64,000 nucleotides of DNA from the IMG/VR virus record IMGVR_UViG_3300000944_000006, positions 18,380 through 82,379 of that record, one strand, 5' to 3'. Below, piece by piece: positions 1 to 39,822 of this stretch. Origin of the DNA: a virus (lineage: Duplodnaviria; Heunggongvirae; Uroviricota; Caudoviricetes). The notes beneath the pieces are model-generated. The model searched no databases and had not been told where the DNA came from. It saw nothing but the letters and a program-made list of their open reading frames with translations. How positions within the stretch are numbered: the first letter of the stretch is position 1; each line of letters starts with the position of its first letter. The position numbers and the translations under genes are program-made.

Positions 1-51
1 ACTAATATACCCATATACATCAGACCAGATACTGCGCTACTGGCGTACCAC

Positions 52-456
52 TTAAAAATTGAATGCTTCTGTTTTTCCATACTTTACTATAACAGATTCT
101 ATTTTATTTTGCAAGTACGCTTTATGCTTTGGAATGTATTTTAATGCACCACCATCAAACTTAGAAACGTCTTCAGAAGGCAGTACAAGTAAAGCACCTT
201 TCTCCAAATGATTGCGTATGATAGAAAATTCTTTATCAATGCGGTTACAGAATTTGTCATAGTCTTCTGATTTCCAAAACGCCCGCCCGTCTCTTCCTTC
301 AGATTTTTTCATGGATAGAATGCATGTGTTTCCATATGTGTTCAGTTCGCTATTATCAAGCTTTGTGTTTCCAAGAACGAATAAAAAGTTTGGATATCCT
401 TTTATCACGTCTTTAGTCATTTTATTAGGGGAAGATATAATTACTTTATTAACCAT
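52..456 (-). CDS. hypothetical protein (134 aa)
   Basis: Uninterrupted ORF in line with the minus-strand gene array. No motif recognised with confidence. Confidence 0.45.
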   Translation of the reverse strand: MVNKVIISSPNKMTKDVIKGYPNFLFVLGNTKLDNSELNTYGNTCILSMKKSEGRDGRAFWKSEDYDKFCNRIDKEFSIIRNHLEKGALLVLPSEDVSKFDGGALKYIPKHKAYLQNKIESVIVKYGKTEAFNF

Positions 457-710
457 TGTCTTTTCTTCTTTTTATTATTTTTATTTTAAAGTGGTTTTAT
501 AAGAATGATAACTGGCCTTTCTGTTTCGAGGTAGCCAGTGTGGTGAAAATCTTCACGACCCATTTAAAGAAACTTGTATCTTAGCCGTTAGGCCGCGATA
601 GCTTGTTCTGAAAAACCGTTAACATTTAATGCATCAGTTAAATACTATTTATAAAAATTATATAGTGTTGTCAAACGAAATCTTATGAAAACGACATTAT
701 TTTCTTTCGT

Positions 711-718
711 TATAAATA
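711..718 (+). promoter_or_regulatory. T4-type late promoter box TATAAATA upstream of the GIY-YIG gene
   Basis: Exact TATAAATA about 63 nt upstream of the ATG at 782. Single occurrences are also expected by chance in AT-rich DNA. Confidence 0.3.
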
Positions 719-781
719 ATAGTGAAGTCGCGGTTTCCTATAACCCACTTCTCTAACATTTTAACCAAAGGACTAACCTTC

Positions 782-1420
782 ATGTCAGCTAAACCATATT
801 TATACACTGTATACAAAACAACAAATTTAATCAATAACAAAATCTATGTAGGCGCTCATAAAACGACAAACCCAGATGATTCTTATTTAGGGTCTGGTGT
901 TTATTTAAAAAGGTGTATTAAAAAATATGGAAAAGAAAATTTTAAAAAAGAAGTTTTGTTTATTTTTGAAACAGAGAAGGAAGCCCTGATAAAAGAAAGT
1001 GAAATAGTAGATGAAAATTTTGTCAAAAGTAAAGAAACGTATAATTTAAAATTAGGCGGTGGTAGAAAATTAGGCACTTCTGGATATAAATTTACGGAAG
1101 AACAGAAAAAGAAAATGTGCATTTCACAGCAAAAAAGATGGTCTAATCTTACAGATGAAGAAAGAATTTTAATCCAAGAAAAAAGAAATCGTATTCCCAA
1201 TAAATTAAAAGGGAAGAAGTTGACAAAAAACCATGCTAAAAAAATTAGCGAAGCATTAAAATCTAAAAACTTATTAACACATAATAGTGTTAAAATATCT
1301 ATTAATGATGAAATATTTCTTTCAATAAATAGAGCAGCAAAGGAACTGGATATTAAACCTACTACAATAGTCGGAAGATTAAAAAATAAAAAATATAGAA
1401 AATATTTTAGAATAGAATAG
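782..1420 (+). CDS. GIY-YIG homing endonuclease (seg-like), C-terminal NUMOD3-like repeats
   Basis: N-terminus LYTVYKTTNLINNKIYVGAHKT...YLGSG has the GIY-YIG architecture. Repeated basic K/G-rich motifs (GYKFTEEQKKKM, KGKKLTKNHAKKISEALK) follow. Start moved from 722 to the ATG at 782, which has an AAGGA upstream. Paralog of 63077..63748. Confidence 0.75.
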   Translation: MSAKPYLYTVYKTTNLINNKIYVGAHKTTNPDDSYLGSGVYLKRCIKKYGKENFKKEVLFIFETEKEALIKESEIVDENFVKSKETYNLKLGGGRKLGTSGYKFTEEQKKKMCISQQKRWSNLTDEERILIQEKRNRIPNKLKGKKLTKNHAKKISEALKSKNLLTHNSVKISINDEIFLSINRAAKELDIKPTTIVGRLKNKKYRKYFRIE

Positions 1421-1436
1421 ATGTCTATCTAAAACC

Positions 1437-2510
1437 CTATGTCAACCCCATAAGTTTAATATCTGTACTTGATTTTCCTGCTAAAGCCGCAGGCGTGTTT
1501 AAGTCATCGAAAATTTTAGGAGCGTTATCATTCATTCTTGTTAGCAGTCTTCGCAATGTTTTTTCAGATTGCTTTAGGCTATCAAACGACCATGTTGTTT
1601 CAAAACGATAATAAGATTTCAACAACGCCAAGCGAATAACTTTACCGTCCCAATCTTTAAGTAAATCATGGATATATACAGTATTGCCGAGAGACTTTGA
1701 CATCTTATCACCGCCAATCTTTAAAAATTCATTATGTATCCAGTATTTTGCAAATGTTTTGCCATTAGCACATTCACTTTGGGCACGTTCATTTTCATGA
1801 TGTGGAAATTTTAAATCTATTCCACCTGTATGAATATCAATAGTTTCGCCCAACGTAGCCTTAGCCATAGCAGAACATTCTATGTGCCAACCAACACGAC
1901 CTTTACCAAATGGTGATATCCATCCGACACCATCTTTTTCAGGCTTCCAAAGAACAAAGTCTTCTACATTCTTTTTAATGTCGGTTGTCGAATCAGAAAC
2001 GCGACTGCCTTTTCGCAATTTAGACAAAGTATTTCCAGATAGTTTTCCATAAGAATCATATTTTGTTACATCGAAAAACACATGCCCGTCTTTGACATAT
2101 GCATAGTCAGTTTCGACAAGACCTTTTATCATATCAATCATGTTTTGAATATTATCTGTGGCTTTTGGTTGATATGTTGGTTCAAGACATCCTAATTTAG
2201 TCAAATCATCTTGATATATCTTTGTATATTTTTCGGTTATCTGCTTTATCGACACACCTGTTTCAACAGACTTATTAATGATTTTGTCATCAATATCTGT
2301 AATATTTCTAGCATACAGAACACTATCTTCGCCATAAACATGACGTAGAACGCGAAAAAGAACGTCTGTGACAATAGCAGCGCGAGCATTGCCTATGTGA
2401 GCATAATTATATACAGTGGGGCCGCAGCCATACATGGTCACGCGCTTGGCATCTTGCGGAACAAAAATTTCTTTGTTGTTTGTGGCAGAATTATATAAAC
2501 GGATTTTCAT
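1437..2510 (-). CDS. cysS: cysteinyl-tRNA synthetase, class I catalytic core; C-terminal region truncated relative to bacterial CysRS
   Basis: CGPTVYNYAHIGNARAA (HIGH-type motif), KMSKS present, RNITDIDDKII, WHIECSAM and DDLNTPAA blocks align with bacterial CysRS. The protein stops about 90 aa short of the E. coli length, immediately convergent with the GIY-YIG gene. Start set at MKIRLYN. Confidence 0.8.
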   Translation of the reverse strand: MKIRLYNSATNNKEIFVPQDAKRVTMYGCGPTVYNYAHIGNARAAIVTDVLFRVLRHVYGEDSVLYARNITDIDDKIINKSVETGVSIKQITEKYTKIYQDDLTKLGCLEPTYQPKATDNIQNMIDMIKGLVETDYAYVKDGHVFFDVTKYDSYGKLSGNTLSKLRKGSRVSDSTTDIKKNVEDFVLWKPEKDGVGWISPFGKGRVGWHIECSAMAKATLGETIDIHTGGIDLKFPHHENERAQSECANGKTFAKYWIHNEFLKIGGDKMSKSLGNTVYIHDLLKDWDGKVIRLALLKSYYRFETTWSFDSLKQSEKTLRRLLTRMNDNAPKIFDDLNTPAALAGKSSTDIKLMGLT

Positions 2511-2878
2511 TTTACTAAATCTTCTCTGTCTACCCATGAGCGTTTTTCACTTGGAAATCGTAAAGATACGTGGCGAGTAAGTATGTAATTCTTTAAATCA
2601 TGTAGTTTTTCGAGTGAAATATTGTAGTTTCTAGTATTAAATGCCATTCCAAGAAATATAGATAATGTTGCATTTAATATAGATGCTTCGACAGCAAACG
2701 CTTCTGCCTTATATGCATATGCGTCATCAGTAATTCTTTCACGCGCCCATAAGTAAGCTACTGGTGCAATATCACAATCTGGGCATGCTCCTTCTAGTAC
2801 AGCCAAAATGTTTATGTCTAAAATTGAATAATTGCTCATGGTGATTCCCAAATCGTTTTCTACAACACATATTATCAT
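2507..2878 (-). CDS. hypothetical protein (123 aa)
   Basis: ORF directly downstream of the promoter-cassette copy at 2836-2915. Confidence 0.5.
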   Translation of the reverse strand: MIICVVENDLGITMSNYSILDINILAVLEGACPDCDIAPVAYLWARERITDDAYAYKAEAFAVEASILNATLSIFLGMAFNTRNYNISLEKLHDLKNYILTRHVSLRFPSEKRSWVDREDLVK

Positions 2879-2915
2879 AATATGTTGTGCATTGCAACAG
2901 TTATTTAAAGAATTT
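2836..2915 (-). promoter_or_regulatory. early promoter/leader cassette copy C (TTGCAA-N17-TAATAT, palindrome TGTTGTGCATTGCAACA, conserved leader ...GTAGAAAACGATTTGGGAATCACC-ATG)
   Basis: Homologous over about 80 nt to the cassettes at 41530, 50855 and 30606. The palindrome overlaps the -35 element. The cassette sits immediately 5' of the ATG at 2878. Confidence 0.6.
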
Positions 2916-3178
2916 TGGAAAGTGAGAAGGGAAGATTTGGGTGTACTTCCAACCGCCGATTCAATACCGTTTGATATTTAAGCGGAACTTTTCTACCTTG
3001 GGTTAACAAAGCGTTCTTTAGCACTTGCTCGTCGAACGTCCTACTACAGGATAGAAAATCAGACTACAGCCTTGAAGAGGCTGTTATTATCTGCACTTCT
3101 CGATGTCGGGTTACGTCCCGACAATCTTCTAATAGACACTGTTTTTTCGTATGTCAACGTCTATTTTAAATTTATATT

Positions 3179-3484
3179 TTAAATATCGTCTACAGCAGCT
3201 TCGTACATTTCTGAAAGCATAATTTCATTTTCGTACTTAGCTTTATCTTTACGAATCTTTTTACGCTTAGATAAAACTTTACGGACAATAGACGGGTCAA
3301 GATTATATGTCTTGGCTTCTTCAAGAATAGTTTTCTTATCGAATTGAAGGTCTTCAATTTCGATTTCGACAGCTTCGGCACGTTGAACGATATTCTTCAA
3401 CTGCTGTATTTCAATGCTGTTCATTTGCGTAGTGTCTGCCATATATATTCTTTCCTTTTTATTATAGTTACAGGCTTGTTTCAT
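3179..3484 (-). CDS. hypothetical protein (101 aa)
   Basis: ORF with a charged, helical-looking sequence. Confidence 0.45.
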   Translation of the reverse strand: MKQACNYNKKERIYMADTTQMNSIEIQQLKNIVQRAEAVEIEIEDLQFDKKTILEEAKTYNLDPSIVRKVLSKRKKIRKDKAKYENEIMLSEMYEAAVDDI

Positions 3485-3815
3485 ACAACGTTTGTCTAGT
3501 CAACGTTATTTTTCTTTCCCATATTTGCTTCTTGCAAAAAATAAAATAACATCCTTCGATTTCTATTTTATTTTCGTCTATGATTTTAATCTTTGCATCA
3601 TAAGACTTTTGGTTCATTGGATTGACTATCATACCTTTTAAGTCTTTGTCAAAGTCAAAAAGTATCTTTGTCCCTTTTTTGGAATATCCGCAGATATATT
3701 CTCCGCAAGGTTTTATATGTATTTCTTTTTCGTTAGGTGTCATCCAAACACCAGTTAGAAGTATCAAAGAAAGCTGTTTAAATAGTTGCATCATCCGTCG
3801 AAGATAAATCGACAA
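3468..3815 (-). CDS. hypothetical protein, probable N-terminal signal/TM segment
   Basis: Hydrophobic LSLILLTGVWM near the N-terminus. The start may be the internal MMQLF. Confidence 0.4.
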   Translation of the reverse strand: MSIYLRRMMQLFKQLSLILLTGVWMTPNEKEIHIKPCGEYICGYSKKGTKILFDFDKDLKGMIVNPMNQKSYDAKIKIIDENKIEIEGCYFIFCKKQIWERKITLTRQTLYETSL

Positions 3816-4053
3816 TAACCTTTTCTAATTTTTTCGGACAGCAGAAAATCTGCCCACGTCCATATTCAACACCATTAATAGTGTAAGATGCTTCTGTAAG
3901 AATTTGATGATTACCTTCACCAAGACCTTCCAGAATAGCCTGCCATATATTTACAGGAAGCTTTGGAAAGTCTTTATATATCCATCCTTTCCGCTTTATA
4001 TGTTGCGGTAAAGGTGGTGAAGCATCTATAAAATTTTGATATTGATTAGCCAT
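3778..4053 (-). CDS. hypothetical protein (91 aa)
   Basis: ORF in the minus-strand array. Confidence 0.4.
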   Translation of the reverse strand: MANQYQNFIDASPPLPQHIKRKGWIYKDFPKLPVNIWQAILEGLGEGNHQILTEASYTINGVEYGRGQIFCCPKKLEKVIVDLSSTDDATI

Positions 4054-4065
4054 AATAAAAATTCC

Positions 4066-4362
4066 TCATAAGTCATACCATTTTACCCAAGCATCACACA
4101 CAATGTCTAATCTTCCTTTTTTATAAGTCTCTTTATATGGTTCAATATAAAGACCTTCTACTAAAGCAAAAACGATAAAGTCAGGCTTTTTTCTAATAAT
4201 TTTTATGATTTCTTCGACAACTGCATCACTGACTTTCACCAAACTTACAATTTTTTTGTAATTAGTATTCTCAAAAATCTTTCTTGGATTAGATTCGAGA
4301 GAAGTTTCATGTTTCCATACACTATAAAGTTCTATAAATTTTTGACAATTTTGTTTTTTCAT
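4066..4362 (-). CDS. hypothetical protein (98 aa)
   Basis: ORF in the minus-strand array. Confidence 0.4.
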   Translation of the reverse strand: MKKQNCQKFIELYSVWKHETSLESNPRKIFENTNYKKIVSLVKVSDAVVEEIIKIIRKKPDFIVFALVEGLYIEPYKETYKKGRLDIVCDAWVKWYDL

Positions 4363-4582
4363 AATAAAATCTATTAACGTATAATGGTTAATAAATCAAT
4401 AATTATTTTGTGTAGACACTACCTATGGTATAAGAAATAAATCCTATAATTAATAATATACTAACACCACCGACTATGATTTCAAATAGTGGATACATAA
4501 ACATAAGATATCCTAATATAACCGCCACTAAAATCATGCAAGATAATATTGCAGAGCCTATAAAAGTTTCTTTTACCATTTC

Positions 4583-5305
4583 TTACAACTCTATAATTAA
4601 CGGTTCGTATTTACCATATTTCTTGTCAAGAAGATATCGTTCTTCTGGATATCCGTGTGGATTTGCCACAACACGCGTGTCACCTAACATATAGTCAACA
4701 GGGTCATGAATATGTCCGTGGCCCCATAGTGCAGGCTTTCTTGTTTTGATAAAATTATCTAAATTATTATGAAAGAAGTCGTTAATGGGATTTCCTTTCC
4801 ATCTATCCACAACAGACATGTTAGACGGACTATGATGTGTGAACACTAAATCGCCTTCTTCAACAACATCCATAAGCCATTCATAAGACTTTTTAAATTC
4901 TTCATTGGCACGTTCACCGCTCCAATCGCCAATATAATTTGAATCATTTAGCTGCTTCTCATACATAATTTCACGTATGGGGGAAGACATGTGCGTCCAT
5001 AAGGTACACATATGTACCTTACGACCTTTCACATCTATTGTGTGATTATTGTATGATGAATTTAAATTATTAAAAACAAAATTATTTACATCATCAAAAT
5101 CTTGGTGATAATATTCATGGTTTCCTGCTAAATATGCAATCTTCTGTTCTTCAAGTTCTTTAACAGAATGTATGCGCGTCTGTACTTCATAAGGATTACC
5201 TATATCGCCTGCAAGAACATATAAATCGACATTTTCACTTTTAGGAATGATAGGAATGTTACTACCATTTCTCATGTGCGTATCTGATACAAGAGCAATT
5301 TTCAT
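4583..5305 (-). CDS. calcineurin-like metallophosphoesterase
   Basis: MKIALVSDTHM, LAGDIGNP and LAGNHEYY blocks (D-x-H, GD, GNHE motifs). Confidence 0.65.
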   Translation of the reverse strand: MKIALVSDTHMRNGSNIPIIPKSENVDLYVLAGDIGNPYEVQTRIHSVKELEEQKIAYLAGNHEYYHQDFDDVNNFVFNNLNSSYNNHTIDVKGRKVHMCTLWTHMSSPIREIMYEKQLNDSNYIGDWSGERANEEFKKSYEWLMDVVEEGDLVFTHHSPSNMSVVDRWKGNPINDFFHNNLDNFIKTRKPALWGHGHIHDPVDYMLGDTRVVANPHGYPEERYLLDKKYGKYEPLIIEL

Positions 5306-5309
5306 ATTT

Positions 5310-5861
5310 TTACCAACTTACCCATATGTCAATTGTGTCATCTTCGTCTGCCAAGTGTTTAAACGTGTCATGCCACACTTTCTGGATTTCTTTCTGCCAA
5401 GGTTCGGCAATGATATAACTATAATCTTCACCGATGTAAACAGAAGCTACGTTATCATTTCGAAAATTATCTGATACGCAGTTTGCTAATTGCCAATGCC
5501 AAAAGTCCATGTAAGGTGTTTCAAGCCATTTACCGTCTTCAACGTCTTTTTTGTATTGTGAAAAAAGTATTTTCGAAGACCCTTTGTGGTTTCCTTCGAT
5601 ATCGTAATCACGAAGACCTTTTTCTTTGTGCCAATCATTATAATCGCCAGTTTCGGGGTGAAAATGTTTACCTGCTTTTCTAGCGTTATATCCAAGTTTA
5701 TTGTCTATAACTTTGTTCATATCCATAAAATCATATGTCTGATAATATTTCTTTCGGACATCACTTGCGTCATTAAAAAGATTCTTTTTCGCATCGAAAG
5801 CTTTCTGACGGGCCTGTAGTTCATCAAAAAGTTCTTGGTCTGTGTAAGTTTTTAGTGTCAT
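5310..5861 (-). CDS. hypothetical protein (183 aa)
   Basis: ORF tightly packed after the phosphoesterase gene. Confidence 0.5.
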   Translation of the reverse strand: MTLKTYTDQELFDELQARQKAFDAKKNLFNDASDVRKKYYQTYDFMDMNKVIDNKLGYNARKAGKHFHPETGDYNDWHKEKGLRDYDIEGNHKGSSKILFSQYKKDVEDGKWLETPYMDFWHWQLANCVSDNFRNDNVASVYIGEDYSYIIAEPWQKEIQKVWHDTFKHLADEDDTIDIWVSW

Positions 5862-6073
5862 GTGACTTCACCTTTCAGCATCTGTCCAAGAAAATATTTC
5901 GTCGAAAAGCTGCAACTATTTGCATCATAGATATGTGACATGCTGTTAATAGTTCCTACCATGGCAGTGCCATCACCATTTTCATAGCGAAATGAATCGC
6001 CTTTGTTTATGTTAGCGTGTTCTGAAATACGAACAAGTTCTTTACCGTCAATTGTATGAATTGATTTTCTCAT
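5858..6073 (-). CDS. hypothetical protein (71 aa)
   Basis: 4-nt overlap with the downstream gene suggests coupling. Confidence 0.4.
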   Translation of the reverse strand: MRKSIHTIDGKELVRISEHANINKGDSFRYENGDGTAMVGTINSMSHIYDANSCSFSTKYFLGQMLKGEVT

Positions 6074-8550: not shown

Positions 8551-8888
8551 GGCTTTTCCGCTTCACGTTCCCATAAATCTCTTTTAATAATTGTCATATA
8601 AATTACTCTTTTTGAGAAATTTGCCATAAAGATATCCCACTTATCGTCGGGATTCTCAAAAACAATATTGTAGACTTTACCTTCTTTAGTGTCGTCATAA
8701 ACAGTTTCTTTATATATAATATTCAATTCATCACAACCACCACCAATTCCCCAGACACTACCGCTCATATCTACATCAACAGACGCTAAAACGATATCGT
8801 CTGTCTTGTTAAGAATTACAACGTCAAGGTCTGCTACTTTAATGTTACCACTCTTATCAGAAACATAATTTAAAGAAGCTTTCATCAT
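8547..8888 (-). CDS. hypothetical protein (113 aa)
   Basis: 4-nt overlap with neighbours. Confidence 0.45.
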   Translation of the reverse strand: MMKASLNYVSDKSGNIKVADLDVVILNKTDDIVLASVDVDMSGSVWGIGGGCDELNIIYKETVYDDTKEGKVYNIVFENPDDKWDIFMANFSKRVIYMTIIKRDLWEREAEKP

Positions 8889-9427
8889 GACAAAAGCTTT
8901 CTAAAAGTAAGTGACACTCTCGGCTTAGCAGGGTCATAAGACATCTTAGGAATTCTATGAAGATGTGTTTGTTGCATACCCGCAGGCATGATAAACAACG
9001 ACCCATTTTCCAAAACTTTTTTATTGATAGAATCAACGCCTTTTGAACCAATTTCTTTCCAATTGATTTCACGATTTTGTCCGAAAGAAATGACAGCAAT
9101 AGGACATGTGTGGTCAATGCCTGCATCATCATCAGAATGCCATCCTAACCAATCCTTGCGTGTATCATATTTGTTAAGAAAACAGCCTTCGAAATATACG
9201 CCAGTTTTGACCAAAAGTTCAGCACGATAATATTCAATAAGGTCAAGATTTTCGTTCGGCTCATATGTACGCACACCACGGCCTGCGCCATATGTGTAAG
9301 GCTTGTTAAGTGTCGTATCCCAATATTCTTTACGTGGCGTATTCTCGCGCTGTATCCAATCTATTTCAAGAAGAGTTTCGTAATCTAATACGTCTGCGAA
9401 ATTTTTAAAATATAAAGGTTCCATCAT
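8885..9427 (-). CDS. 2OG-Fe(II) oxygenase superfamily protein
   Basis: WHSDDD (HxD), distal QTHLHRI histidine and RVSLTFR (2OG-binding Arg). Typical double-stranded beta-helix dioxygenase facial triad. Confidence 0.6.
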   Translation of the reverse strand: MMEPLYFKNFADVLDYETLLEIDWIQRENTPRKEYWDTTLNKPYTYGAGRGVRTYEPNENLDLIEYYRAELLVKTGVYFEGCFLNKYDTRKDWLGWHSDDDAGIDHTCPIAVISFGQNREINWKEIGSKGVDSINKKVLENGSLFIMPAGMQQTHLHRIPKMSYDPAKPRVSLTFRKLLS

Positions 9428-10327: not shown

Positions 10328-10774
10328 TTATGTGCTTGTCAAGCCATTTCGTAATTCTTCACGAACCTTCATTATTATCTTACCAAGCTTGTTTTCACCT
10401 ACACCATTACACACGCCCCAAAACGTATCGTTCCATGTATTATCTTCTACGATTAGACAATTACCTGTGCCTAGAAGTTTTGGCGTAAGGAACATATCAT
10501 TTCGATATTTCTCCCGCGTAAGTTCTAGCATAATATTTTCTTTGATGGAATCCCAATCTTTTCGTATTTTAAGATTTCTTCCATATTTTTTAGCATCGCC
10601 TGCATAGGTTAGTTTAGATATTTTGATTCGTTCTTCTTCGTCTAATGTCTTAGCAGCGACATATGCATGTTCTACAGAAGGATACAAAATATATTCAAAC
10701 ATTATGTCTACACGTTGAAAGTTAGACAACCATCTATATTTGCCATGAAAGCCAATTATATCTTCTTGAAGCAT
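10328..10774 (-). CDS. NADAR-domain protein (YbiA-like; NAD/ADP-ribose-associated)
   Basis: FHGKYRWLSNFQ...YPSVEHAYVAAK...GNCLIVEDNTWNDTFWGV matches the F-x-G-x-Y-x-x-LSNF signature of NADAR/DUF1768. Confidence 0.7.
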   Translation of the reverse strand: MLQEDIIGFHGKYRWLSNFQRVDIMFEYILYPSVEHAYVAAKTLDEEERIKISKLTYAGDAKKYGRNLKIRKDWDSIKENIMLELTREKYRNDMFLTPKLLGTGNCLIVEDNTWNDTFWGVCNGVGENKLGKIIMKVREELRNGLTST

Positions 10775-11016
10775 TAAGTTTCTAACTGTTCAGGAAAAAG
10801 ACATTTATCTGCACGGCAGTCATCAACTAACATTTCAAGCATTGTCAAGGCTTTTTGACGCATTTTATGTTGACTTCTTCCATACACACGAACAGATTGC
10901 ATTGTAGGAATGTGCGTTACAGTCATCCAAGAATTATTTGGGCCGCAATGCCACTGTCCCTTTAATGGCTTGTCAGTATTACCTACAATTTTTATATCTT
11001 TTTCGTCTAACATCAC
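10774..11016 (-). CDS. hypothetical protein (80 aa)
   Basis: ORF. Confidence 0.4.
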   Translation of the reverse strand: MMLDEKDIKIVGNTDKPLKGQWHCGPNNSWMTVTHIPTMQSVRVYGRSQHKMRQKALTMLEMLVDDCRADKCLFPEQLET

Positions 11017-11921
11017 ATGTCCCGCTTTTTTGTTTCGTAGAAGTGTTTAGCGATACCAAAACGAGGGACACCGCGCGGTGTAAGGTTTTGGTATTTGATT
11101 GTCGCAGGATTGCCAATATATTTTTCTTTATTTTTTAAAAGATATCGACAAAATGCCGTGTTGCCTTTTATACCTGCCTTGGCAGTCAATTCACCATCGA
11201 CTCTATAAAGAACACTCTTAGCAGCGCCCATCCATTTACCAGTACCTTCTATAATATCCAAAACTTCGTATTCAGCATCATAGAACTTTTTAACTTTCCA
11301 AATATATTTTGAAATCTTTTGTTCATATGGAGAATCGTGGGGAAAGCGTATCATTATGCCTTCATAACCTTGCTCAATACACATATCTAATTCTTCTTTA
11401 ATAGATTCAATATTAGAATCAAAAAATGCAGTATTAATCAAGTTAACTACACCGCCGTTTTCTGACAGTTGTCCTATGAATTTTTTATAATACATCCAAC
11501 GATTAAAAAATGACATATCAGAACCGTCATAAAAATCGAAAATATGAAACTGTAGATGTTCAACAGCTAATTCAATTTCTTCTTTTGTCGGAACTTGTTT
11601 TTTCGCGAGCGAAATGATTTGATTAAAATCATCTTTGAAGTCGTGATTATAAAGTTCTCCATCTATCACAAGTTTAGGAAATATTTTGAAAACAGGACGA
11701 AGAATATCTTGTATATGTCCTGTTGTTTGGAACAGATTGCCTTCTTTTGTGTAAGCCCCGTCTATAGTGATATAGCATCGAATACCGTCTGCTTTAGGCT
11801 GTCTACAAAGGGCTGTCACACTTGGTGTTGTTTTTATATTTCTAGCAAACCACTTTTCAAGTTCGACTTGCTTATCTTCATCTATCGGGAATGTCCGCGA
11901 TAACATAGGTTTAAATTTCAT
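11013..11921 (-). CDS. ATP-dependent DNA ligase, minimal (adenylation + OB domains only)
   Basis: Motif I KADGIRC (the K-x-D-G-x-R form typical of DNA ligases, as in T4 gp30 KADGAR), DGELY (motif III), YEGIMIR (motif IV). At 302 aa it lacks an N-terminal DNA-binding domain. Confidence 0.7.
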   Translation of the reverse strand: MKFKPMLSRTFPIDEDKQVELEKWFARNIKTTPSVTALCRQPKADGIRCYITIDGAYTKEGNLFQTTGHIQDILRPVFKIFPKLVIDGELYNHDFKDDFNQIISLAKKQVPTKEEIELAVEHLQFHIFDFYDGSDMSFFNRWMYYKKFIGQLSENGGVVNLINTAFFDSNIESIKEELDMCIEQGYEGIMIRFPHDSPYEQKISKYIWKVKKFYDAEYEVLDIIEGTGKWMGAAKSVLYRVDGELTAKAGIKGNTAFCRYLLKNKEKYIGNPATIKYQNLTPRGVPRFGIAKHFYETKKRDM

Positions 11922-12370: not shown

Positions 12371-12719
12371 AATTTCCTACACAATACCATCTTCCAAATT
12401 TTACAAAATGCTGTTGCATGTTGTCATGCTCACGTAAAAATTTATTAAGAAGTTTCTTTTGCACCTTTACTTTTGCTTGTGGATTTGCCTTTGTTTTACG
12501 CACATCCATGTTAACGGCTTGCGCCATATCTTCATATTCCTTGTTACTAACAGACGTTTTATAGTCTGTCAACACACGTTCCATTTCTGTGTGGTCGCGA
12601 AATAATAGAAAAATATATTTAGAATCTATTTGAATATATCCATTTGCCTTGGATTTAGATTCTTTTACGATATCATTAATCGTGTCTATATCGTCATATG
12701 TTGTCTTGATAGTTATCAT
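12363..12719 (-). CDS. hypothetical protein (118 aa)
   Basis: ORF. Confidence 0.45.
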   Translation of the reverse strand: MITIKTTYDDIDTINDIVKESKSKANGYIQIDSKYIFLLFRDHTEMERVLTDYKTSVSNKEYEDMAQAVNMDVRKTKANPQAKVKVQKKLLNKFLREHDNMQQHFVKFGRWYCVGNYG

Positions 12720-13054
12720 AGTGTTGATAGAGGATTTGCAATTTTCATTGGGGGATGTTTAAGACGTTGAAAGCCAGAAATCTTTTTAATTTTAGGTGAT
12801 GCTAGGTCTGATATATCAACAAGACAAAATATTCGAAGATAGCTGTCTGGCTTAATAAGATATTGTTCAGGAACTTTAAGTGTCTCGTTAGTATTAAAAT
12901 CCATAGGTAGAATTCCCTTGATTAAGGGCGATACGGTTATGTCCATATCAAATCTTATCGCATAATTAGTATAATTAAAAAAATATGTTACTGACGAATC
13001 GCTAGATTTGTATATATTAATTTTTGAAATATCTATGAAAAATTTATATAACAT
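12716..13054 (-). CDS. hypothetical protein (112 aa)
   Basis: ORF. Confidence 0.4.
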   Translation of the reverse strand: MLYKFFIDISKINIYKSSDSSVTYFFNYTNYAIRFDMDITVSPLIKGILPMDFNTNETLKVPEQYLIKPDSYLRIFCLVDISDLASPKIKKISGFQRLKHPPMKIANPLSTL

Positions 13055-14657: not shown

Positions 14658-14936
14658 TCATCGTGCCAATATTTCGTATTTTCGTAATATAATTTCATCT
14701 GATGGGATGTAATAATGTGTGATTTCGCTTTTTAGGTTTGTGTATGCAGATAAAGAATGTTTTATTTCAAAATATATAATAGAATTTAAATAGTCTTGTT
14801 CGGATAACAAGCTTCTAAAAATTTCGCTGTGTATATAAAATATTTCTTCTGGGTGGTTTCCTCGGAATCTTCGTTCGTTGTCTTTTCTCCGCGCCATAAA
14901 TCCAGTTGCTTTATATTTAAATTCAAACTTATACAT
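14658..14936 (-). CDS. small protein, FKYK...Y-x-IP-x-D-E-I family member
   Basis: N-term MYKFEFKYKATG, C-term YYIPSDEIILRKYEI. Paralog of the 14936, 15186, 39809, 40068 and 40333 genes. Confidence 0.5.
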   Translation of the reverse strand: MYKFEFKYKATGFMARRKDNERRFRGNHPEEIFYIHSEIFRSLLSEQDYLNSIIYFEIKHSLSAYTNLKSEITHYYIPSDEIILRKYEILAR

Positions 14937-18214: not shown

Positions 18215-18574
18215 TTAATGTATAGCGGTTGTTGGCGAAAGCACATCGAAGACTTTCTTGCATGTGTATTTATAAACCATGCCATTATCCCCATCTAGCT
18301 TTTGTTCTACGCCCATTTCATAATGTGGTGATGTAGCAGACATAGATGCTTCTGTTAGTTCAAAATGCTGTGACATGCCAAAATATGTCACAGACGATGT
18401 GTTTGCACATTGTATCGCTGACAGGATAGTCATATCCGATAGCAATTTCTGCATGAATACAGGACGTTGATAGATATCCGAAACTGAAAAGGTTATATTT
18501 CCAAGACGTTTTCGAATATCCGTCTTTTCGTCCATTTCATCGGCATAATCCATTAAATGTTCTTTTGTATTCAT
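18215..18574 (-). CDS. hypothetical protein (119 aa)
   Basis: ORF. Confidence 0.45.
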   Translation of the reverse strand: MNTKEHLMDYADEMDEKTDIRKRLGNITFSVSDIYQRPVFMQKLLSDMTILSAIQCANTSSVTYFGMSQHFELTEASMSATSPHYEMGVEQKLDGDNGMVYKYTCKKVFDVLSPTTAIH

Positions 18575-19961: not shown

Positions 19962-20363
19962 TTATTCTTTGGTAAAATTTCCCCTGCCAAAGATTTTTAC
20001 ACTTGTGTACATAATACGTGCGCGATGTTTGGCAACACCAGATGCGTCCATAATATATCTGAATTCTTTGTCTGCGAAAGATTTTGTTTTTAATCCATGT
20101 TCGTAAAGATAATCGTGTATTACAGCAGCAAATGTATATTTTCCGAATGGCGGTACAAACGCCCATAATGGCCTTGGTACGCTTGCTAAATCAGTATGTG
20201 TGCCTTTGGGTATAAATATTTCTGTATCGTCAGTAAGTTTTATTTGTATGTCTCTTGTCGTAACAAATCCATATTCAGAAACTTGCGTCACTGTATTATA
20301 TTGATACTCTTTTACATAATTTCTATAATGTGCAATACCTTTATACTTAAACATTATTTTCAC
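19962..20363 (-). CDS. DUF1353-like protein
   Basis: DLASVPRPLW...FGKYTFAAVIHDYLYEHG...ADKEFRYIMD resembles the DUF1353 conserved core. Confidence 0.4.
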   Translation of the reverse strand: MKIMFKYKGIAHYRNYVKEYQYNTVTQVSEYGFVTTRDIQIKLTDDTEIFIPKGTHTDLASVPRPLWAFVPPFGKYTFAAVIHDYLYEHGLKTKSFADKEFRYIMDASGVAKHRARIMYTSVKIFGRGNFTKE

Positions 20364-20406: not shown

Positions 20407-20736
20407 TTAACATAAATTTATACTACATTGATTCAATTTCGCTGAATCTAATTTAATATTTCTTATATCGGCTCTTATAATATCTAAATTAGTCAATTTA
20501 AGGATTTCAATTGATTTAGAAGTTTTGAAATAAAGCGTTTCTTTACTATCTTTAAATTTTACGAAAACTTTGTTCAAAAAGTTTTGTTGTGTATCATTTC
20601 CTACATGAAAGTGTACACTAAATAAAACCTCACGCAACCCGTCCTCGGCATAATATCTTAAGCATACATCATTGTGGCCCATGTAATATACACTAACATC
20701 GCGTATATTTGAAAAGTCTATTTTATATTTGTACAT
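20407..20736 (-). CDS. small protein, MYKYKI family
   Basis: Starts MYKYKIDFSN. Paralogous N-termini at 20723, 28514, 29413, 33604 and 35719. Confidence 0.45.
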   Translation of the reverse strand: MYKYKIDFSNIRDVSVYYMGHNDVCLRYYAEDGLREVLFSVHFHVGNDTQQNFLNKVFVKFKDSKETLYFKTSKSIEILKLTNLDIIRADIRNIKLDSAKLNQCSINLC

Positions 20737-21100
20737 GTCTTTGCGTAACCGTGTCTACAAATCGAAAATCTTCAAATGTTAATTCGACTGTATGTGAAGG
20801 AAAATTGAAAGATGTGCTATGTATAGTTGACACACAAAGAATAGCTTCAAAATATAAAATAGATTTTTCTTTGTTAAAATGATTTATAACACGTCTTAGA
20901 ATTGAATTTGCGAAGTCAGTGTTCATTTGTTCATCGCTCGTAGGAAAAATATGTGCATAAATCTTGTGCGTACCTACAAAATAACTAACCATAACATTGC
21001 CACTATCTGTAATAATGACATCCCATGCAGTAGAAAAATCTATTTTAAATTTTTGCGGCGTTTCTAACATGGTTGAAATCTTTCTTTTCTTTAAAAGCAC
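20723..21100 (-). CDS. small protein, MYKYKI-family-like (QKFKIDFST)
   Basis: N-terminal region similar to the neighbouring gene. Confidence 0.4.
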   Translation of the reverse strand: MLLKKRKISTMLETPQKFKIDFSTAWDVIITDSGNVMVSYFVGTHKIYAHIFPTSDEQMNTDFANSILRRVINHFNKEKSILYFEAILCVSTIHSTSFNFPSHTVELTFEDFRFVDTVTQRHVQI

Positions 21101-22448
21101 CGTTATTATAAACTGTCGTTAGTTTATTGTCATCAAGTATATCATCTTCGCCTGTTGTATATTCTCCATTTAGATTAACAGATGTCAGAAATCCTTTTTT
21201 GAATTTCTTTGAATTGTTGGTGAATGATTTGAATGCGGCACGGCGTCCACCATCATCAATAAAAGAATTGGCAGAAGACATAAACTGAAACGTGTTTTTC
21301 GAAACATTTTGGTACATGCTTCCGCGCATACACAGCACAAAGTTGTTAATAGATACTTTACTTGCCTTACATAACTTAACAAAATTTTCAAAATCTTTTA
21401 GAGACTGCCAATCATACTGGAACATAATTTTAACACGATGCGAAATGCGATATCCACGGTCTGTTGTTGTCTGGGGGAAAGTTGCCAAAATCTTTTCCAT
21501 AAGCGCAATGACTTCTTCTTGTGTGATGCCGTTACCACATTTAAGATGCACTTTACGTGTTGTATATGATTCTATTTTTTCTTTTAATATTTCGCATATA
21601 TATGTTTCAACAGCATCTTCGGCATTATGTGTGTCAATAGTTAATGCGGTATTATCTGGCGTTTGCTCGCTGTCAAAGCTTTCTAAAAAGTGTTGATATG
21701 CAAGAACTTCGTTTTGAACGCCCCACGACAATGTGACAAGATTGTCATTTCCATTATATCCACTATTATCTGTAAAGAAATTAGAATAAATTTCATTTCC
21801 AATATTTACGGCAGATGTTGCTTCTGTTGTGTCAAAATTTATAAGATGTGCGATAGCTGTTATATCTGCTGTTTCCTTCGAAGACATTTCAGAAAAGCTT
21901 TCATCATGCAGTACAATATCTTCTGGGCCAATATCATCATATCCAATAGACGTTTCTTCGTCTATAATATCTTTTAAAATTTTCTTTATTTCTCGCGAAA
22001 TTGTAGCAACTGTGGATGGTAGCCATATCGCACGTAACAAAGCCTTTTCTATGTGCGACACAAGCCATGCACACTTAGGGTCTGTGTTGATGACTTGGTA
22101 TAAAGGCGTCTTAAACGGTACAACAGACCCTTCTGGCAGGGCTTGTATTTTTATTGGTATAGCGCCGTCATATGTTTTTAAAATATATTCCCATCCTTCG
22201 TAATTAAATTCCATACCAGATTTTTCTGCAACATTTTGTGCAATTTTCAAATCATCTTCTGTGATAGGTTTCGAAAGATGTTGATTTATAAAAAGGTGAT
22301 GTCCTGTATAGACCATTTCCTTAATAGGTTTGTACTTATCGTCAGACGAACCATTTGCTTCACCACACACAGACGCGTGTTCTAATGTTAATTGGTAATG
22401 ACGTGCAGCGTCAAGTTTGTGGAATAATGTGTTAAGAATAATGCTCAT
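21045..22448 (-). CDS. nicotinamide phosphoribosyltransferase (NAMPT/NadV) family protein, divergent; possibly non-catalytic
   Basis: Block EGWEYILKTYDGAIPIKIQALPEGSVVPFKTPLYQVINTDPKCAWLVSHIEKALLRAIWLPSTVATISREIKKIL aligns closely with NAMPT ([74 protein letters not shown]). Where NAMPT has HDFGYRG the phage protein has HDESFSE, and the His247-equivalent position appears to be Asp. Confidence 0.7.
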   Translation of the reverse strand: MSIILNTLFHKLDAARHYQLTLEHASVCGEANGSSDDKYKPIKEMVYTGHHLFINQHLSKPITEDDLKIAQNVAEKSGMEFNYEGWEYILKTYDGAIPIKIQALPEGSVVPFKTPLYQVINTDPKCAWLVSHIEKALLRAIWLPSTVATISREIKKILKDIIDEETSIGYDDIGPEDIVLHDESFSEMSSKETADITAIAHLINFDTTEATSAVNIGNEIYSNFFTDNSGYNGNDNLVTLSWGVQNEVLAYQHFLESFDSEQTPDNTALTIDTHNAEDAVETYICEILKEKIESYTTRKVHLKCGNGITQEEVIALMEKILATFPQTTTDRGYRISHRVKIMFQYDWQSLKDFENFVKLCKASKVSINNFVLCMRGSMYQNVSKNTFQFMSSANSFIDDGGRRAAFKSFTNNSKKFKKGFLTSVNLNGEYTTGEDDILDDNKLTTVYNNGAFKEKKDFNHVRNAAKI

Positions 22449-25909: not shown

Positions 25910-26324
25910 TCTTAACCTTGTTAAAATAAAAGCTGTCGCCGTTCACGTAGTATTTATAATTAAACTTATCAACAATTTCTTTTGCGAAGCGTTCATAGAT
26001 AATGAATTTCTTTTCTGTTCCGCCGCTTGTTGTGAAATAGAAGCTATTTGGACAGTTTTCAGTGATGTAAGCGAAGATATGGTTACGAACAGTAGCAAAG
26101 ACCTTAAGAGGGTTTTTTATGCGGTTCCCGTAACTTTTCGTTGAAGAGAATGTCCCAAAGAATTCTGTTTCATGTGTGATGAATGGCATACCATGCTTAT
26201 CGTATCCGCCAATGATATAGAACGTTATGTCACGGTCTTTTACTTCGAAGACATAATCTGTTCCATCAACAGTAAAGGCTTTTAAAACATGCTTAGTCAT
26301 AATAATATCGCATTTCTCCATCAA
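25902..26324 (-). CDS. hypothetical protein overlapping the RSH gene start by 8 nt (candidate partner/antitoxin)
   Basis: Translationally coupled gene immediately upstream of the RSH gene. Confidence 0.45.
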   Translation of the reverse strand: MMEKCDIIMTKHVLKAFTVDGTDYVFEVKDRDITFYIIGGYDKHGMPFITHETEFFGTFSSTKSYGNRIKNPLKVFATVRNHIFAYITENCPNSFYFTTSGGTEKKFIIYERFAKEIVDKFNYKYYVNGDSFYFNKVKNA

Positions 26325-28157: not shown

Positions 28158-28533
28158 TATCCAAGATTTTTACAATTCTTCCAACAGTATTTGCGCCATC
28201 CCATGTTCTACATTTTCCTAAACATTCTTCAACAACGTTTATACGTTTTCCGCTTCTAAGAAATTCTTCTATTACATTAGGTGGTAAACTACACTTAAAT
28301 AAAATCGTATATTCGACACTTTTTACGTGGGTTTTATCTAACATAAAATTTTTTAATTTTCCATATGTGAGTGGCGATATATAAAAATCAAATGTATTAT
28401 ATTCTTCCAGACCTTTTCCTACCATAGTTTCTATGACATGAGTTTGTGTATCGCCAGAATCTAATTCTGTCGTGATATAGCTATTCTCTATGGAAGTTAT
28501 ATTTATTTTATAGTTATGTAACATCATCACCAA
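28144..28533 (-). CDS. hypothetical small protein
   Basis: ORF in the array. Confidence 0.4.
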   Translation of the reverse strand: MVMMLHNYKINITSIENSYITTELDSGDTQTHVIETMVGKGLEEYNTFDFYISPLTYGKLKNFMLDKTHVKSVEYTILFKCSLPPNVIEEFLRSGKRINVVEECLGKCRTWDGANTVGRIVKILDNAHE

Positions 28534-28924
28534 GCTTTTTAATATGTGTTATTTTTCCGCGTATAGCCATACCTTCATGCATCGATTTTGGCGTAATACC
28601 ATCTTCCAAAAAATTTATACGAGGTTGGTAAGAGGTATTTCTATCAAATTCTTTAAAAAAATAAAACATCTCTGCTGCAGAGATAGAGCATTCAAAAAAT
28701 ATTTCAACGTGGTTTATTATACCTGTGCCAACAATTTGTTCATTAAGGTTATGCAAGGAATATAAAAACTCTCTGTGTCCGTTTCTTAAATAGAAATCAA
28801 ATGGATTGGAACAGATATAATCACCATCAATAGTCAAGTGAAAACCAACTTCAATAAAGTCATTTTTTGTATCGGCATATTTTTCAAAACATATATTTTC
28901 AGCAATTATTTTATACTTATACAT
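28514..28924 (-). CDS. small protein, MYKYKI family
   Basis: MYKYKIIAEN. Start set at the MYKYK methionine. Confidence 0.45.
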   Translation of the reverse strand: MYKYKIIAENICFEKYADTKNDFIEVGFHLTIDGDYICSNPFDFYLRNGHREFLYSLHNLNEQIVGTGIINHVEIFFECSISAAEMFYFFKEFDRNTSYQPRINFLEDGITPKSMHEGMAIRGKITHIKKLGDDVT

Positions 28925-28938
28925 TTTTTCTGTCATTA

Positions 28939-29412: not shown

Positions 29413-29799
29413 CTATTCGTTATATACTGTAATACCGCTTCTTTCATCAACAATCTTGATTATATTACCTGTCGGCATTTGACCGAAAGAATAAGAATTT
29501 GTCTCTGGCGTTTCTAATATGTTTAAGCGGCGAGAGATTTTCTCGTCTCCTGTCTCAAAATATCCAATAATGTGGTCTTTGTGCATATCACATTCAAAGT
29601 ATAATGTATATTCGCCCGTAATTTTATCAATAGATTCAAATAAAGAAACTCTTTTATAGTCATCAAAATAAAAATCAATAATATTTGTATCTCGATGTTT
29701 TTTGTAACTATCGCTGTAGCATTCTATAAACTTTAAAGAATCTTCATCAGAGTAGATACTTAGACTAATAGACGTTATTTTTATTTTATACTTGTACAT
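29413..29799 (-). CDS. small protein, MYKYKI family
   Basis: MYKYKIKITS. Confidence 0.45.
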   Translation of the reverse strand: MYKYKIKITSISLSIYSDEDSLKFIECYSDSYKKHRDTNIIDFYFDDYKRVSLFESIDKITGEYTLYFECDMHKDHIIGYFETGDEKISRRLNILETPETNSYSFGQMPTGNIIKIVDERSGITVYNE

Positions 29800-33603: not shown

Positions 33604-33981
33604 CTATCGTGTTATCTTAACAAGATTAACGCCCATTACATCTGTGAAAGATAATATACGATTAGATTCTTTAATAGGCGGATTATTAGATTTGAAATAA
33701 AAAGTATTTGGATATTTTTCAAAATATCTATCGACTATAGTATCCTTTATATAGTATTTAGATTTGTCTTTATTTGGGTATTTGTCATTGTAGACATACA
33801 GATACTGATTACTGTCGCGCAAATTAACATTAAAATAATCCAACATTTCTTCATATAATTTCACATTGTTCTCAAAAACAATGCAGTTGGAATCGCCTAA
33901 TCCAAAAACCACGCTTGATATTCTTGTATCAAATTCTATAAGCGAAACTTTATTAAAAGGTATTTTGAATTTATACATCAT
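33604..33981 (-). CDS. small protein, MYKYKI family (MMYKFKIPF)
   Basis: N-terminal family motif. Confidence 0.45.
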   Translation of the reverse strand: MMYKFKIPFNKVSLIEFDTRISSVVFGLGDSNCIVFENNVKLYEEMLDYFNVNLRDSNQYLYVYNDKYPNKDKSKYYIKDTIVDRYFEKYPNTFYFKSNNPPIKESNRILSFTDVMGVNLVKITR

Positions 33982-35102: not shown

Positions 35103-35741
35103 TCAAACTATATTTGGCATGTCGTTATAAAAATCTACAAAGACATCATATACGTCTGCAAGAGCAACAAAATCACAAGACGCATCATCTATACCATCAC
35201 TGTTTAAATCTGCTGTGCTATTAGTTGTCACAAGTATTCCTAAAGGTTCTCCATATTCAGAAACAACAGGCGAACCAGACATTCCACCACCTACAGGCTG
35301 ATAATATATATGTTCATAGGCGTCATGCGACAATATAAGTGGTGGATTTTCCATTTTGGCTATCCAAGTAGGTGTTACATAACCATCAGAACCAGAAACA
35401 TCTCTTTTGTAATGAACGCGCATAACACGTTCTGAAAGATGCCCTGAAGCATGGGGGTATCCCCACGTATAAAGCCTTTCCCCGCGTTTTGGTTCGCGTG
35501 GTCTAGCCATAGAAGATAAATTACAACCGATTAAAGCTGCGTCTATAACACCTGTTCCTGCCATTATTTCTCCGCTCACAAATGGTGGTAGTTTACGTTC
35601 TTGTTCTTTTAAAACATGCATAGCAGTTACCCAACCACCTGCCCATTGCCAATATGTTCCAGACGCTTCTACACGCTTTGATGCGTGGAAATGCTTTTTT
35701 ATTATAAATCCAAAGTCTTCAGGTCTTTTCATCACAATCAT
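35103..35741 (-). CDS. trypsin/chymotrypsin-like serine peptidase
   Basis: Candidate catalytic His in TAMHVLKE and an oxyanion/Ser motif GGGMSGSPVV (GDSGGP-like). Locally GC-richer codon usage. Confidence 0.5.
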   Translation of the reverse strand: MIVMKRPEDFGFIIKKHFHASKRVEASGTYWQWAGGWVTAMHVLKEQERKLPPFVSGEIMAGTGVIDAALIGCNLSSMARPREPKRGERLYTWGYPHASGHLSERVMRVHYKRDVSGSDGYVTPTWIAKMENPPLILSHDAYEHIYYQPVGGGMSGSPVVSEYGEPLGILVTTNSTADLNSDGIDDASCDFVALADVYDVFVDFYNDMPNIV

Positions 35742-36021
35742 ATTTATAAATTATTTTTACAATACGTGTTTCATCAACAAAATAAATTCTTTGTAAAAAG
35801 TTTTCTATGCACAGTTGGTTCCAAAATTTAGTCGATGGCCCCATTCCTGTATTAATAAGTTCAAGCATTTTTTCGTCGTGAATACTATCTAATGGTATCG
35901 TTAAGGGTGTGCCCTGAATGTTCAAATTTATTTGAACATGTGGACTTGGATATGAAAAATTATCAGAAGTAGAAAGATATATACTATGTATGTCTTCAGT
36001 TTTAATATAAAATTTATACAT
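35719..36021 (-). CDS. small protein, MYKYKI family (MYKFYIKTED)
   Basis: Start set at the family methionine. Confidence 0.4.
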   Translation of the reverse strand: MYKFYIKTEDIHSIYLSTSDNFSYPSPHVQINLNIQGTPLTIPLDSIHDEKMLELINTGMGPSTKFWNQLCIENFLQRIYFVDETRIVKIIYKYDCDEKT

Positions 36022-39131: not shown

Positions 39132-39139
39132 TATAAATA
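39132..39139 (+). promoter_or_regulatory. T4-type late promoter box TATAAATA 6 nt upstream of the resolvase ATG
   Basis: Exact TATAAATA at 39132-39139, ATG at 39146. Confidence 0.35.
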
Positions 39140-39753: not shown

Positions 39754-39822
39754 ATGTCGCGCGAACATATTAATGTATTCGAAATTCCAGAAGATGAAAT
39801 TGTACATCATGTCGAAGCATAG
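39754..39822 (+). pseudogene. 22-codon minigene retaining only the C-terminal family motif (MSREHINVFEIPEDEIVHHVEA), preceded by a strong SD
   Basis: AGGAGAA 9 nt before the ATG. The peptide ends with the IPEDEI signature of the FKYKLTG family, whose intact members follow directly downstream. Confidence 0.4.

Follow-up and report, generated by a model that had tools for sequence, protein, structure and literature searches.

The cysS gene and its convergent neighbor

The 64,000-nucleotide stretch of DNA analyzed here, referred to throughout as the window (positions 18,380 to 82,379 of IMG/VR virus record IMGVR_UViG_3300000944_000006, classified within Caudoviricetes), carries near its left end a minus-strand gene for a cysteinyl-tRNA synthetase (CysRS, encoded by cysS). 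The encoded protein ends well before its relatives do, and its stop codon faces that of a free-standing homing endonuclease gene (HEG) of the GIY-YIG type on the plus strand. The features at this junction, with lengths in amino acids (aa) or nucleotides (nt) and open reading frame abbreviated as ORF, are as follows:

2507-2878, minus strand: upstream orphan ORF, 123 aa, whose TGA stop overlaps the cysS ATG
1437-2510, minus strand: cysS core, encoding a 357-aa CysRS with Rossmann fold, CP insertion, stem-contact fold, and a 29-aa helical-bundle remnant, ending in …KLMGLT and the stop
1421-1436: spacer, 16 nt between the convergent stops (HEG TAG at 1418-1420, cysS TAG at 1439-1437)
782-1420, plus strand: GIY-YIG HEG, 212 aa from its ATG, Seg-like (TIGR01453, PHROG 314)

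An earlier note on this DNA, made from the letters alone, had read the gene as a phage-encoded CysRS, and this identification held. The protein passed the cut-offs of both TIGR00435 cysS ("cysteine--tRNA ligase"; 412.7 bits, cut-off 340, covering model positions 1-324 of 466) and Pfam tRNA-synt_1e (PF01406; E=1.8e-111, 372.8 bits, cut-off 27), and it matched PHROG 30090 (E=1e-89) as well as solved CysRS structures (phmmer, E=1e-80 to 1e-88). The ORF containing cysS spans 2537 to 1437 on the minus strand, within which the ATG at 2510-2508 (MKIRLYNS…, 357 aa) is the start that agrees with the N termini of homologues. As for the signature motifs listed in the earlier note, KMSKS (residues 269-273) and WHIECSAM were present as described, while the one given as HIGH in fact reads HIGN (residues 38-41). 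The zinc ligands C29, C212, H237, and E241, which correspond to E. coli C28, C209, H234, and E238, were kept, and these four residues occupy invariant columns in an alignment of 117 sequences, as do HIGN and KMSKS. An AlphaFold2 model based on 117 sequences reached a pLDDT of 81.5, with residues 1-328 confident and residues 329-357 below 50 (an earlier run on a 14-sequence alignment, at pLDDT 44.8, had been uninformative and was redone). Foldseek placed this model with the CysRS structures 8qhp, 3tqo, and 1u0b at TM 0.79-0.81 (0.81 for 1U0B). Judged by the retained residues and the predicted fold, the catalytic machinery is complete and confidently folded.

The ATG of cysS shares the tetranucleotide ATGA with the TGA stop of the upstream 123-aa ORF, so that cysS, lying inside a long minus-strand gene array, is translationally coupled to it. 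The upstream ORF itself matched none of the Pfam and PHROG families, and its sole match among 5.8 billion proteins was itself.

The neighboring gene had also been recognized correctly as a free-standing GIY-YIG HEG adjoining cysS. Its product scored 64.9 bits against TIGR01453 (cut-off 56.05; positions 4-213 of 215), matched PHROG 314 "homing endonuclease" at E=2.4e-47, and was 39.6% identical over 97% of its length to the phage T4 HEG between 5.1 and 5.3, which is the segC position (PMC2988022); it stayed below the Pfam cut-offs for GIY-YIG (18.7 versus 22.6) and SegE_GIY-YIG (20 versus 25). The gene lies between cysS and a DUF7831 gene on the opposite strand, is the sole plus-strand gene in that stretch, and is distinct in composition, with a GC content of 26% and a GC content at third codon positions (GC3) of 18%, versus 35% and 27% for the phage genes. 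Like T4 SegC-type HEGs, to which it is ~40% identical at full length, it combines a GIY-YIG domain at the N terminus with a DNA-binding region at the C terminus, is intergenic, and is preceded by a late-promoter-like box; unlike T4 SegC, it follows cysS and does not sit between 5.1 and 5.3. The stops of the two genes are convergent, as had been noted, at a spacing of 16 nt (1421-1436) instead of the 17 nt first given, and no terminator-like hairpin or bidirectional terminator was found between them. The possibility that the HEG is embedded in a group I intron or another RNA element was rejected, Rfam having returned no match at E<=1 in positions 1-4000; the HEG runs antisense to cysS and has no downstream exon, which sets it apart from a group I intron-encoded endonuclease.

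Two Logan contigs of sample SRR2835688 (L001 and L254) meet and overlap by 28 nt at window positions 784-811, a place that coincides exactly with the HEG's 5′ end. This break could reflect a repeat shared with another copy of the HEG, or population heterogeneity at the cassette edge.

The missing anticodon-binding module

Relatives of the window CysRS are 431-510 aa long, versus 357 aa here, and the claim of a C-terminal truncation was confirmed by alignment: the window protein follows its relatives through …KLMGL and then ends. Its terminus …DDLNTPAALAGKSSTDIKLMGL-T, followed by the stop, pairs with …DDLNTPEALANLSIDVAKLLGL-LQKDPEDWFKGE…GTTWRRE in the relatives. Homology reaches the penultimate residue L356 (…KLMGL, then T and the stop), and tblastn alignments of homologue C termini end at 1443, the codon for L356 occupying 1443-1445. 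The break falls inside the conserved LGL/LxxxPxxWF linker (the slash marking the break), and the protein ends one codon past LGL. G355 and L356 are nearly invariant in the 117-sequence alignment, and the next nearly invariant residues, namely L, P, W, F, and G of the linker and D/R/D…E…G…R of the last domain, have no counterpart here; related full-length cysS genes retain the LGLLQKDPEEWF-coding stretch. Mapped onto E. coli CysRS via homologue P0052, the break lies between …V390-L391-G392-L393 and L394-E395-Q396-E397-P398….

The window protein therefore lacks the linker and, after it, the C-terminal alpha/beta anticodon-binding domain (E. coli equivalents 394-461). This missing segment reads LQKDPEDWF…GTTWRR in relatives and amounts to 66 aa by reference to P0052, 80 aa by P0004, and 68 aa by E. 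coli. The earlier note had placed the loss in the C-terminal tRNA-anticodon module, which stands, and had described it as most of the helical domain, which does not; of the helical bundle, a remnant of 29 residues (329-357) is retained and was modeled at pLDDT <50. Neither PF23493 CysS_C nor PF09190 DALR_2 matched the window CysRS, and relatives carry one or the other. The anticodon-binding module with its GTxWRR end, a defining feature of the CysRS family, is absent from the window protein.

A search for this segment beyond 1437 and elsewhere in the genome, which the earlier note had proposed as a check, was run over ~84 kb, i.e., the 64-kb window and 10 kb on either side (loci L254 and L255 of the same phage), out of a contig of at least 151 kb. 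Between 1440 and 440, none of the three minus-strand frames contained anything CysRS-like or a shifted-frame continuation. With the last 130 aa of ten relatives as queries, tblastn (word size 2, E<=10) recovered from the window nothing but the known tail (1443-1607), and the C-terminal domain found no match in the 20 kb of flanks. The 80 missing positions were also modeled from 114 relatives as a hidden Markov model (HMM), which, run unfiltered on six-frame fragments of the window, L254, and L255, returned 2.2 as its best E. Nowhere in the ~84 kb searched is the anticodon-binding domain encoded. On the far side of the HEG the window holds:

711-718, plus strand: T4-late-promoter-like TATAAATA box, 64 nt before the HEG ATG (motif search)
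646-653, minus strand: T4-late-promoter-like TATAAATA box, divergent from the box at 711-718 (motif search)
457-781: non-coding region, 325 nt, between the HEG start and the next minus-strand gene, without a CysRS remnant
52-456, minus strand: DUF7831 gene, 134 aa, unrelated to CysRS (PF25176, 27.7 bits, cut-off 27)

ARAGORN identified tRNA-Met, tRNA-Lys, and tRNA-Arg at 24.4-24.6 kb and 37.1 kb of the window, so that cysS, contrary to what had been stated, is not next to phage tRNAs and lies 22-36 kb from them. Genes for tRNA-Cys were reported as absent from the window, and ARAGORN found none there or in the 20 kb of flanks. The alternative offered in the earlier note, that the core works with the phage tRNAs, gained no support, the three tRNAs being those for Met, Lys, and Arg.

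All 26 complete CysRS found on other viral contigs, a set that comes mostly from phages of 160-600 kb and has no close relatives of this phage, were full length (424-482 aa) and ended in the GTxWRR module, and the PHROG 30090 family comprises 473 positions; the short form is thus not a recurrent phage type, and the phage homologues ending early that would speak for a naturally short form did not turn up in this set. Two short homologues, P0048 (345 aa) and P0088 (362 aa), were examined as candidate natural short forms and discarded, both being bacterial genes that carry frameshifts and lie in cellular synteny; for P0088, the following ORF call holds the CysS_C piece. Aminoacyl-tRNA synthetases (aaRS) count among the known features of huge phages (PMC7162821), and the earlier remark that CysRS is rare in phages was upheld, with other cases seen on very large phage contigs. 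These jumbo-phage CysRS (PHROG 30090; Sinorhizobium phage Phosso; Acinetobacter phage MD-2021a; IMG/VR contigs of 160-600 kb) are, like the one described here, host-derived class I enzymes, at 41-52% identity to it. They differ in being full length and independently acquired, and the window phage is T4-like, with a contig of ~151 kb rather than >200 kb.

Searches for a related phage came back empty, both by megablast of window positions 1-6000 against 50,697 phage records and by IMG/VR scans with cysS, both neighboring genes, and two further neighbors. A scan of JGI metagenomes likewise gave no related phage, its best match being 53% identical, and the best match to the HEG among 5.8 billion proteins was a 44% identical paralogue on the same contig. 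Unannotated GenBank records named as Listeria, Staphylococcus, or Enterococcus phages (7-95 kb) contain CysRS at 43-47% identity, and many IMG/VR matches have cysS at positions 16-969 of a provirus edge. These genes look like host flanks or contaminating host contigs and not like phage genes, and as such records are likely host DNA, genuine phage cysS would be rarer than raw counts suggest.

Origin of the gene and of its shortened end

Among 5.8 billion proteins, the nearest relatives of the window CysRS were full-length cellular CysRS of marine alphaproteobacteria (Litorimonas, Hellea, Robiginitomaculum, and unnamed members) at 61-71% identity; an identical copy of the window protein was present in Logan sample SRR2835688. 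Over residues 1-356, the window protein resembles both the alphaproteobacterial CysRS (e.g., P0004, P0012, and P0052) and E. coli CysRS (PDB 1LI5/1U0B), with the same Rossmann, CP, and stem-contact architecture. It differs from the cellular enzymes in having no linker and anticodon-binding domain, and its gene lies in a phage operon, whereas the bacterial relatives inspected showed the cellular synteny L28, GTP cyclohydrolase I, cysS, GCS2. Its composition is that of the phage, with a GC content of 36.5% and GC3 of 28.0% compared to 35.1±3.8% and 26.8±4.2% for phage ORFs of at least 150 aa (GC3 is 55-61% in the nearest bacterial cysS genes), which argues for long residence in an AT-rich phage lineage. 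The protein also sits on a long branch, being ~65% identical to the bacterial clade, members of which are ~80% identical among themselves.

Despite this divergence, the body of the enzyme looks, by its sequence, well kept and free of signs of decay. When universal positions were defined as those conserved in the bacterial clade and in at least 80% of full-length viral CysRS, 102 of 104 were retained (63/63 in the Rossmann fold, 24/25 in CP, and 15/16 in the stem-contact fold), a pattern that would fit a gene working as a CysRS until recently. Clade-conserved positions had changed more often in the CP and stem-contact regions (21/90) than in the Rossmann fold (9/105; Fisher p=0.005). An interpretation as relaxed constraint on the tRNA-binding domains was dropped, as full-length viral CysRS show the same skew; the ratio of stem-contact to Rossmann change was 0.8-2.9 in the latter and 3.2 in the window protein.

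The reading that we prefer, at a probability of roughly 45%, is that cysS was acquired from an alphaproteobacterium and lost its 3′ end fairly recently at the HEG junction, leaving a marginal or decaying enzyme. A T4-like marine myovirus would have taken the gene long ago from a marine alphaproteobacterium of the Litorimonas/Hellea/Robiginitomaculum type and kept it as an expressed auxiliary gene. The last 200-250 bp of cysS would most likely have been lost fairly recently, when illegitimate recombination or a deletion produced the present junction with the convergent Seg-like GIY-YIG HEG cassette. A HEG-associated deletion is a plausible, if unproven, origin of the truncation, and the most economical one because CysRS homology ends (codon 356) within ~22 nt of the HEG stop, the HEG is distinct in composition, the phage is heavily colonized by such elements, and precedents are documented.

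The extent of colonization is evident from other loci of the same contig. A second GIY-YIG HEG (63077-63748, minus strand, 223 aa) shares 37% identity with the cysS-adjacent one and has a PHROG 314 match at E=1.1e-52; 17 nt of it overlap the beginning of a downstream 479-aa ORF, and TATAAATA precedes it at 63754-63761. A third GIY-YIG paralogue (P0123, 229 aa) lies on the same contig outside the window and is 44% identical to the HEG beside cysS. The ORF for NrdA, the large subunit of class Ia ribonucleotide reductase (54322-57081, minus strand, 919-937 aa; the same gene at 16614-19427 of L255), matched its PHROG in two stretches, with Pfam Intein_splicing and LAGLIDADG_3 between the Ribonuc_red_lgC halves, which identifies nrdA as intein-containing. 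With at least three GIY-YIG HEGs and one intein HEG, this phage appears heavily invaded by such elements.

As for precedents, HEG insertions disrupting phage genes are documented for Aeh1 nrdA/mobE and T4 39/60 mobA (PMC2988022). In these genes, as in phage 25 gene 43 with its seg-like gene (PMC2988022), a conserved coding sequence is interrupted at the site of a free-standing HEG, as it is here. They differ from the present case in that both halves are kept on either side of the HEG and the enzyme reassembles, whereas the distal part of cysS is absent, and in that the window HEG is convergent with the gene and not co-oriented.

Several points weigh against a role of the HEG in a recent loss. 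Seg and Mob genes normally occupy intergenic sites next to a stop codon, and the twelve free-standing endonuclease genes of T4 are found in intergenic regions between conserved genes (PMC2988022); with gaps of a few nt in this phage, any HEG inserted after cysS would abut its stop, and the adjacency does not discriminate between the explanations. No 3′ remnant of cysS was found on the far side of the HEG by reading frames, tblastn, or HMM. The earlier note's claim that HEG insertion clipped the gene is, on both these grounds, unsupported as stated. Since no HEG-less or full-length relative of the phage was found in the collections searched, neither the timing nor the cause of the loss can be dated, and the nearest HEG homologue, at just 44% identity, does not allow the cassette boundaries to be mapped. 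An intact, coupled ORF with every catalytic residue would equally fit a selected short enzyme, the searches covered ~84 kb of a contig of at least 151 kb, and the enzymatic statements made below are carried over from E. coli CysRS.

On the preferred reading of a recent 3′ loss, the retained residues suggest that the truncated product would not have lost the binding of zinc, ATP, and cysteine or the synthesis of Cys-AMP. tRNA-Cys has the anticodon GCA and the discriminator U73 as its major identity elements, U73 alone permits weak charging of acceptor minihelices, and anticodon recognition by CysRS is coupled to the active site (PMC9976931); an enzyme without the domain would therefore be expected to form Cys-AMP yet charge tRNA-Cys poorly, leaving the anticodon unread. 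Such a protein would be a weak, anticodon-blind tRNA-Cys synthetase relying on the acceptor end and U73, and the result would be a marginal or decaying function and not a canonical translation enzyme. By analogy with known structures, the body probably folds without the last domain, since tRNA-free E. coli CysRS crystals model 369-386 of 461 residues (the tRNA complex models all) and the paralogue MshC lacks the domain naturally. MshC (cysteine:GlcN-Ins ligase, ~410 aa) has the same catalytic fold, at TM 0.75-0.79 to the window protein, and differs from it in sequence (28-33% identity). An assignment of the window protein as an MshC orthologue was rejected (TIGR03447, 233.9 bits versus a cut-off of 485.1), the protein being clearly a CysRS derivative. 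The aaRS bodies of GluQRS/YadB and EpmA/PoxA also have no anticodon-binding domain, still activate their amino acid, and serve non-translational roles. Those are old, widespread families with conserved signatures of their own, whereas the window protein stands alone as a recent derivative and forms no family.

A rival account, possible and to be taken seriously although we hold it at well short of even odds, is that the short form is old and selected. The truncation, whether by partial capture or by an earlier deletion, would then predate or be unrelated to the HEG, which would later have landed in the intergenic gap, where free-standing HEGs normally reside (PMC2988022). The core would be useful through U73-based charging of tRNA-Cys as one option, or through MshC-like cysteine ligation or persulfide synthesis as others. 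Much of what was described above accords with this account: the 357-codon ORF is intact in a genome of 34% GC (chance survival in random sequence, ~2e-13), its composition is fully ameliorated, implying that it has long been kept, it is translationally coupled to the upstream ORF, it retains 102 of 104 universal residues, and its body would probably fold without the C-terminal domain, as judged from tRNA-free E. coli crystals and MshC. The persulfide synthase activity of CysRS has in addition been reported to be separable from aminoacylation (PMC5660078). Against an old short form stand its single occurrence, there being no second short CysRS among the viral contigs and P0048 and P0088 being frameshifted, and the position of the break, which cuts a conserved motif instead of coinciding with a clean domain boundary. 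Confidence in the predicted structure of the retained helical tail is low, and the conserved tRNA-contacting residues of the stem-contact fold speak against a long tRNA-independent history. The KIIK motif implicated in persulfide synthesis (PMC5660078) reads KIIN in the window protein (and KIIA in the bacterial relatives), and the MshC model scored 233.9 bits against a cut-off of 485.

In a more specific form, which we consider unlikely, the core would have been kept by selection for a new use of cysteine activation and would not be debris. The possibilities include anticodon-blind cysteinylation of tRNA via U73, a route to deliberate mischarging, and Cys or persulfide sulfur transfer to a non-tRNA acceptor. 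Such repurposing would parallel the rise of MshC, GluQRS, and EpmA from aaRS bodies.

It is improbable, in our judgment, that the gene exists in pieces, with the anticodon-binding domain made elsewhere as a separate polypeptide that reassembles with the core as in the HEG-split Aeh1 nrdA. Phage genes split by HEGs whose halves reassemble are known (PMC2988022, PMC3045599), and the contig of at least 151 kb extends ~67 kb or more past the searched part. The known halves flank the HEG, however, and here its far side is non-coding up to the DUF7831 gene; the missing 80 positions were unmatched in the window and the 20 kb of flanks (tblastn; unfiltered HMM, best E 2.2), where only one of the two fragments is retained, and the neighboring orphan ORF matches no family. 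An assembly chimera or sequencing frameshift at the junction, behind which the real gene would be full length, is very improbable: short bacterial cysS homologues did prove to be frameshift artifacts of low-coverage assemblies, and the Logan contigs of the same sample do break at the HEG 5′ end, but this is the end opposite the cysS junction, the window sequence is reproduced at 100% identity across cysS, the junction, and almost all of the HEG by a Logan contig of SRR2835688, and no frame past the stop continues the CysRS sequence.

Significance and phage setting

That phages carry aaRS genes, chiefly huge phages (PMC7162821), and that HEGs damage phage genes were known already; new here, from one genome, is that a T4-like phage of ordinary size has a CysRS from which exactly the anticodon reader is gone. 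Phage aaRS are usually discussed as intact "translation takeover" genes of huge phages, and in this case the anticodon-reading module has been stripped. If the HEG caused the loss, the locus would be a case in which a selfish endonuclease has destroyed part of an auxiliary gene, as opposed to the splitting of an essential gene, and would offer a natural snapshot of the loss of a host-derived gene. If instead the short enzyme is functional, it would be a natural minimal CysRS, one from which it could be learned whether recognizing the acceptor end is by itself enough for a biological role, and by what route aaRS cores turn into new enzymes.

The T4-like context proposed for the gene was substantiated by a gp61-like primase gene next to nrdA/nrdB and by homologues of gp32, gp53, and gp5. 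The gp61-type primase is ~37% identical to those of T4-like cyanophages, which share the same primase-nrdA neighborhood, and gene content points to a distant T4-like myovirus. The left flank beyond the DUF7831 gene encodes homologues of gp33 (gp33-like), gp32, a TnsA-like endonuclease, gp53, and gp5-lysozyme. The TnsA-like endonuclease N-terminal domain (PF08722) is found in a lone opposite-strand ORF (5556-6032 of L254, ~5 kb left of the window) that lies among small genes, just before the gp53-like and gp5-lysozyme genes; it may be another mobile nuclease.

The TATAAATA box occurred 19 times in the window, where 12.6±3.3 occurrences were expected, mostly just upstream of the start of a same-strand ORF, and both HEGs are among these cases. 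Other example sites are 18267-18274 (minus), 25951-25958 (minus), 39132-39139 (plus), and 46699-46706 (minus). The distribution of this motif suggests that late transcription in the phage is of the T4 type.

About ten small ORFs (90-140 aa) share an M(Y/F)K(Y/F)K(I/L/F) N terminus. They lie at the following positions of the window:

12716-13054
14658-14936
19962-20354
20407-20736
28514-28936
29413-29799
33604-33981
35719-36021
39773-40629

At a BLASTP threshold of 1e-4, only three tandem plus-strand ORFs at 39773-40629 were linked to one another, and the ORFs with this N terminus may represent a diverged multi-copy family. A set of auxiliary genes at 8885-9427, 10328-10774, 11013-11921, and 21045-22448 comprises those for a 2OG-Fe(II) oxygenase, a protein with a NADAR domain, a DNA ligase of the ATP-dependent kind, and a nicotinamide phosphoribosyltransferase, such that NAD salvage and ADP-ribose-related functions share the early region with cysS.

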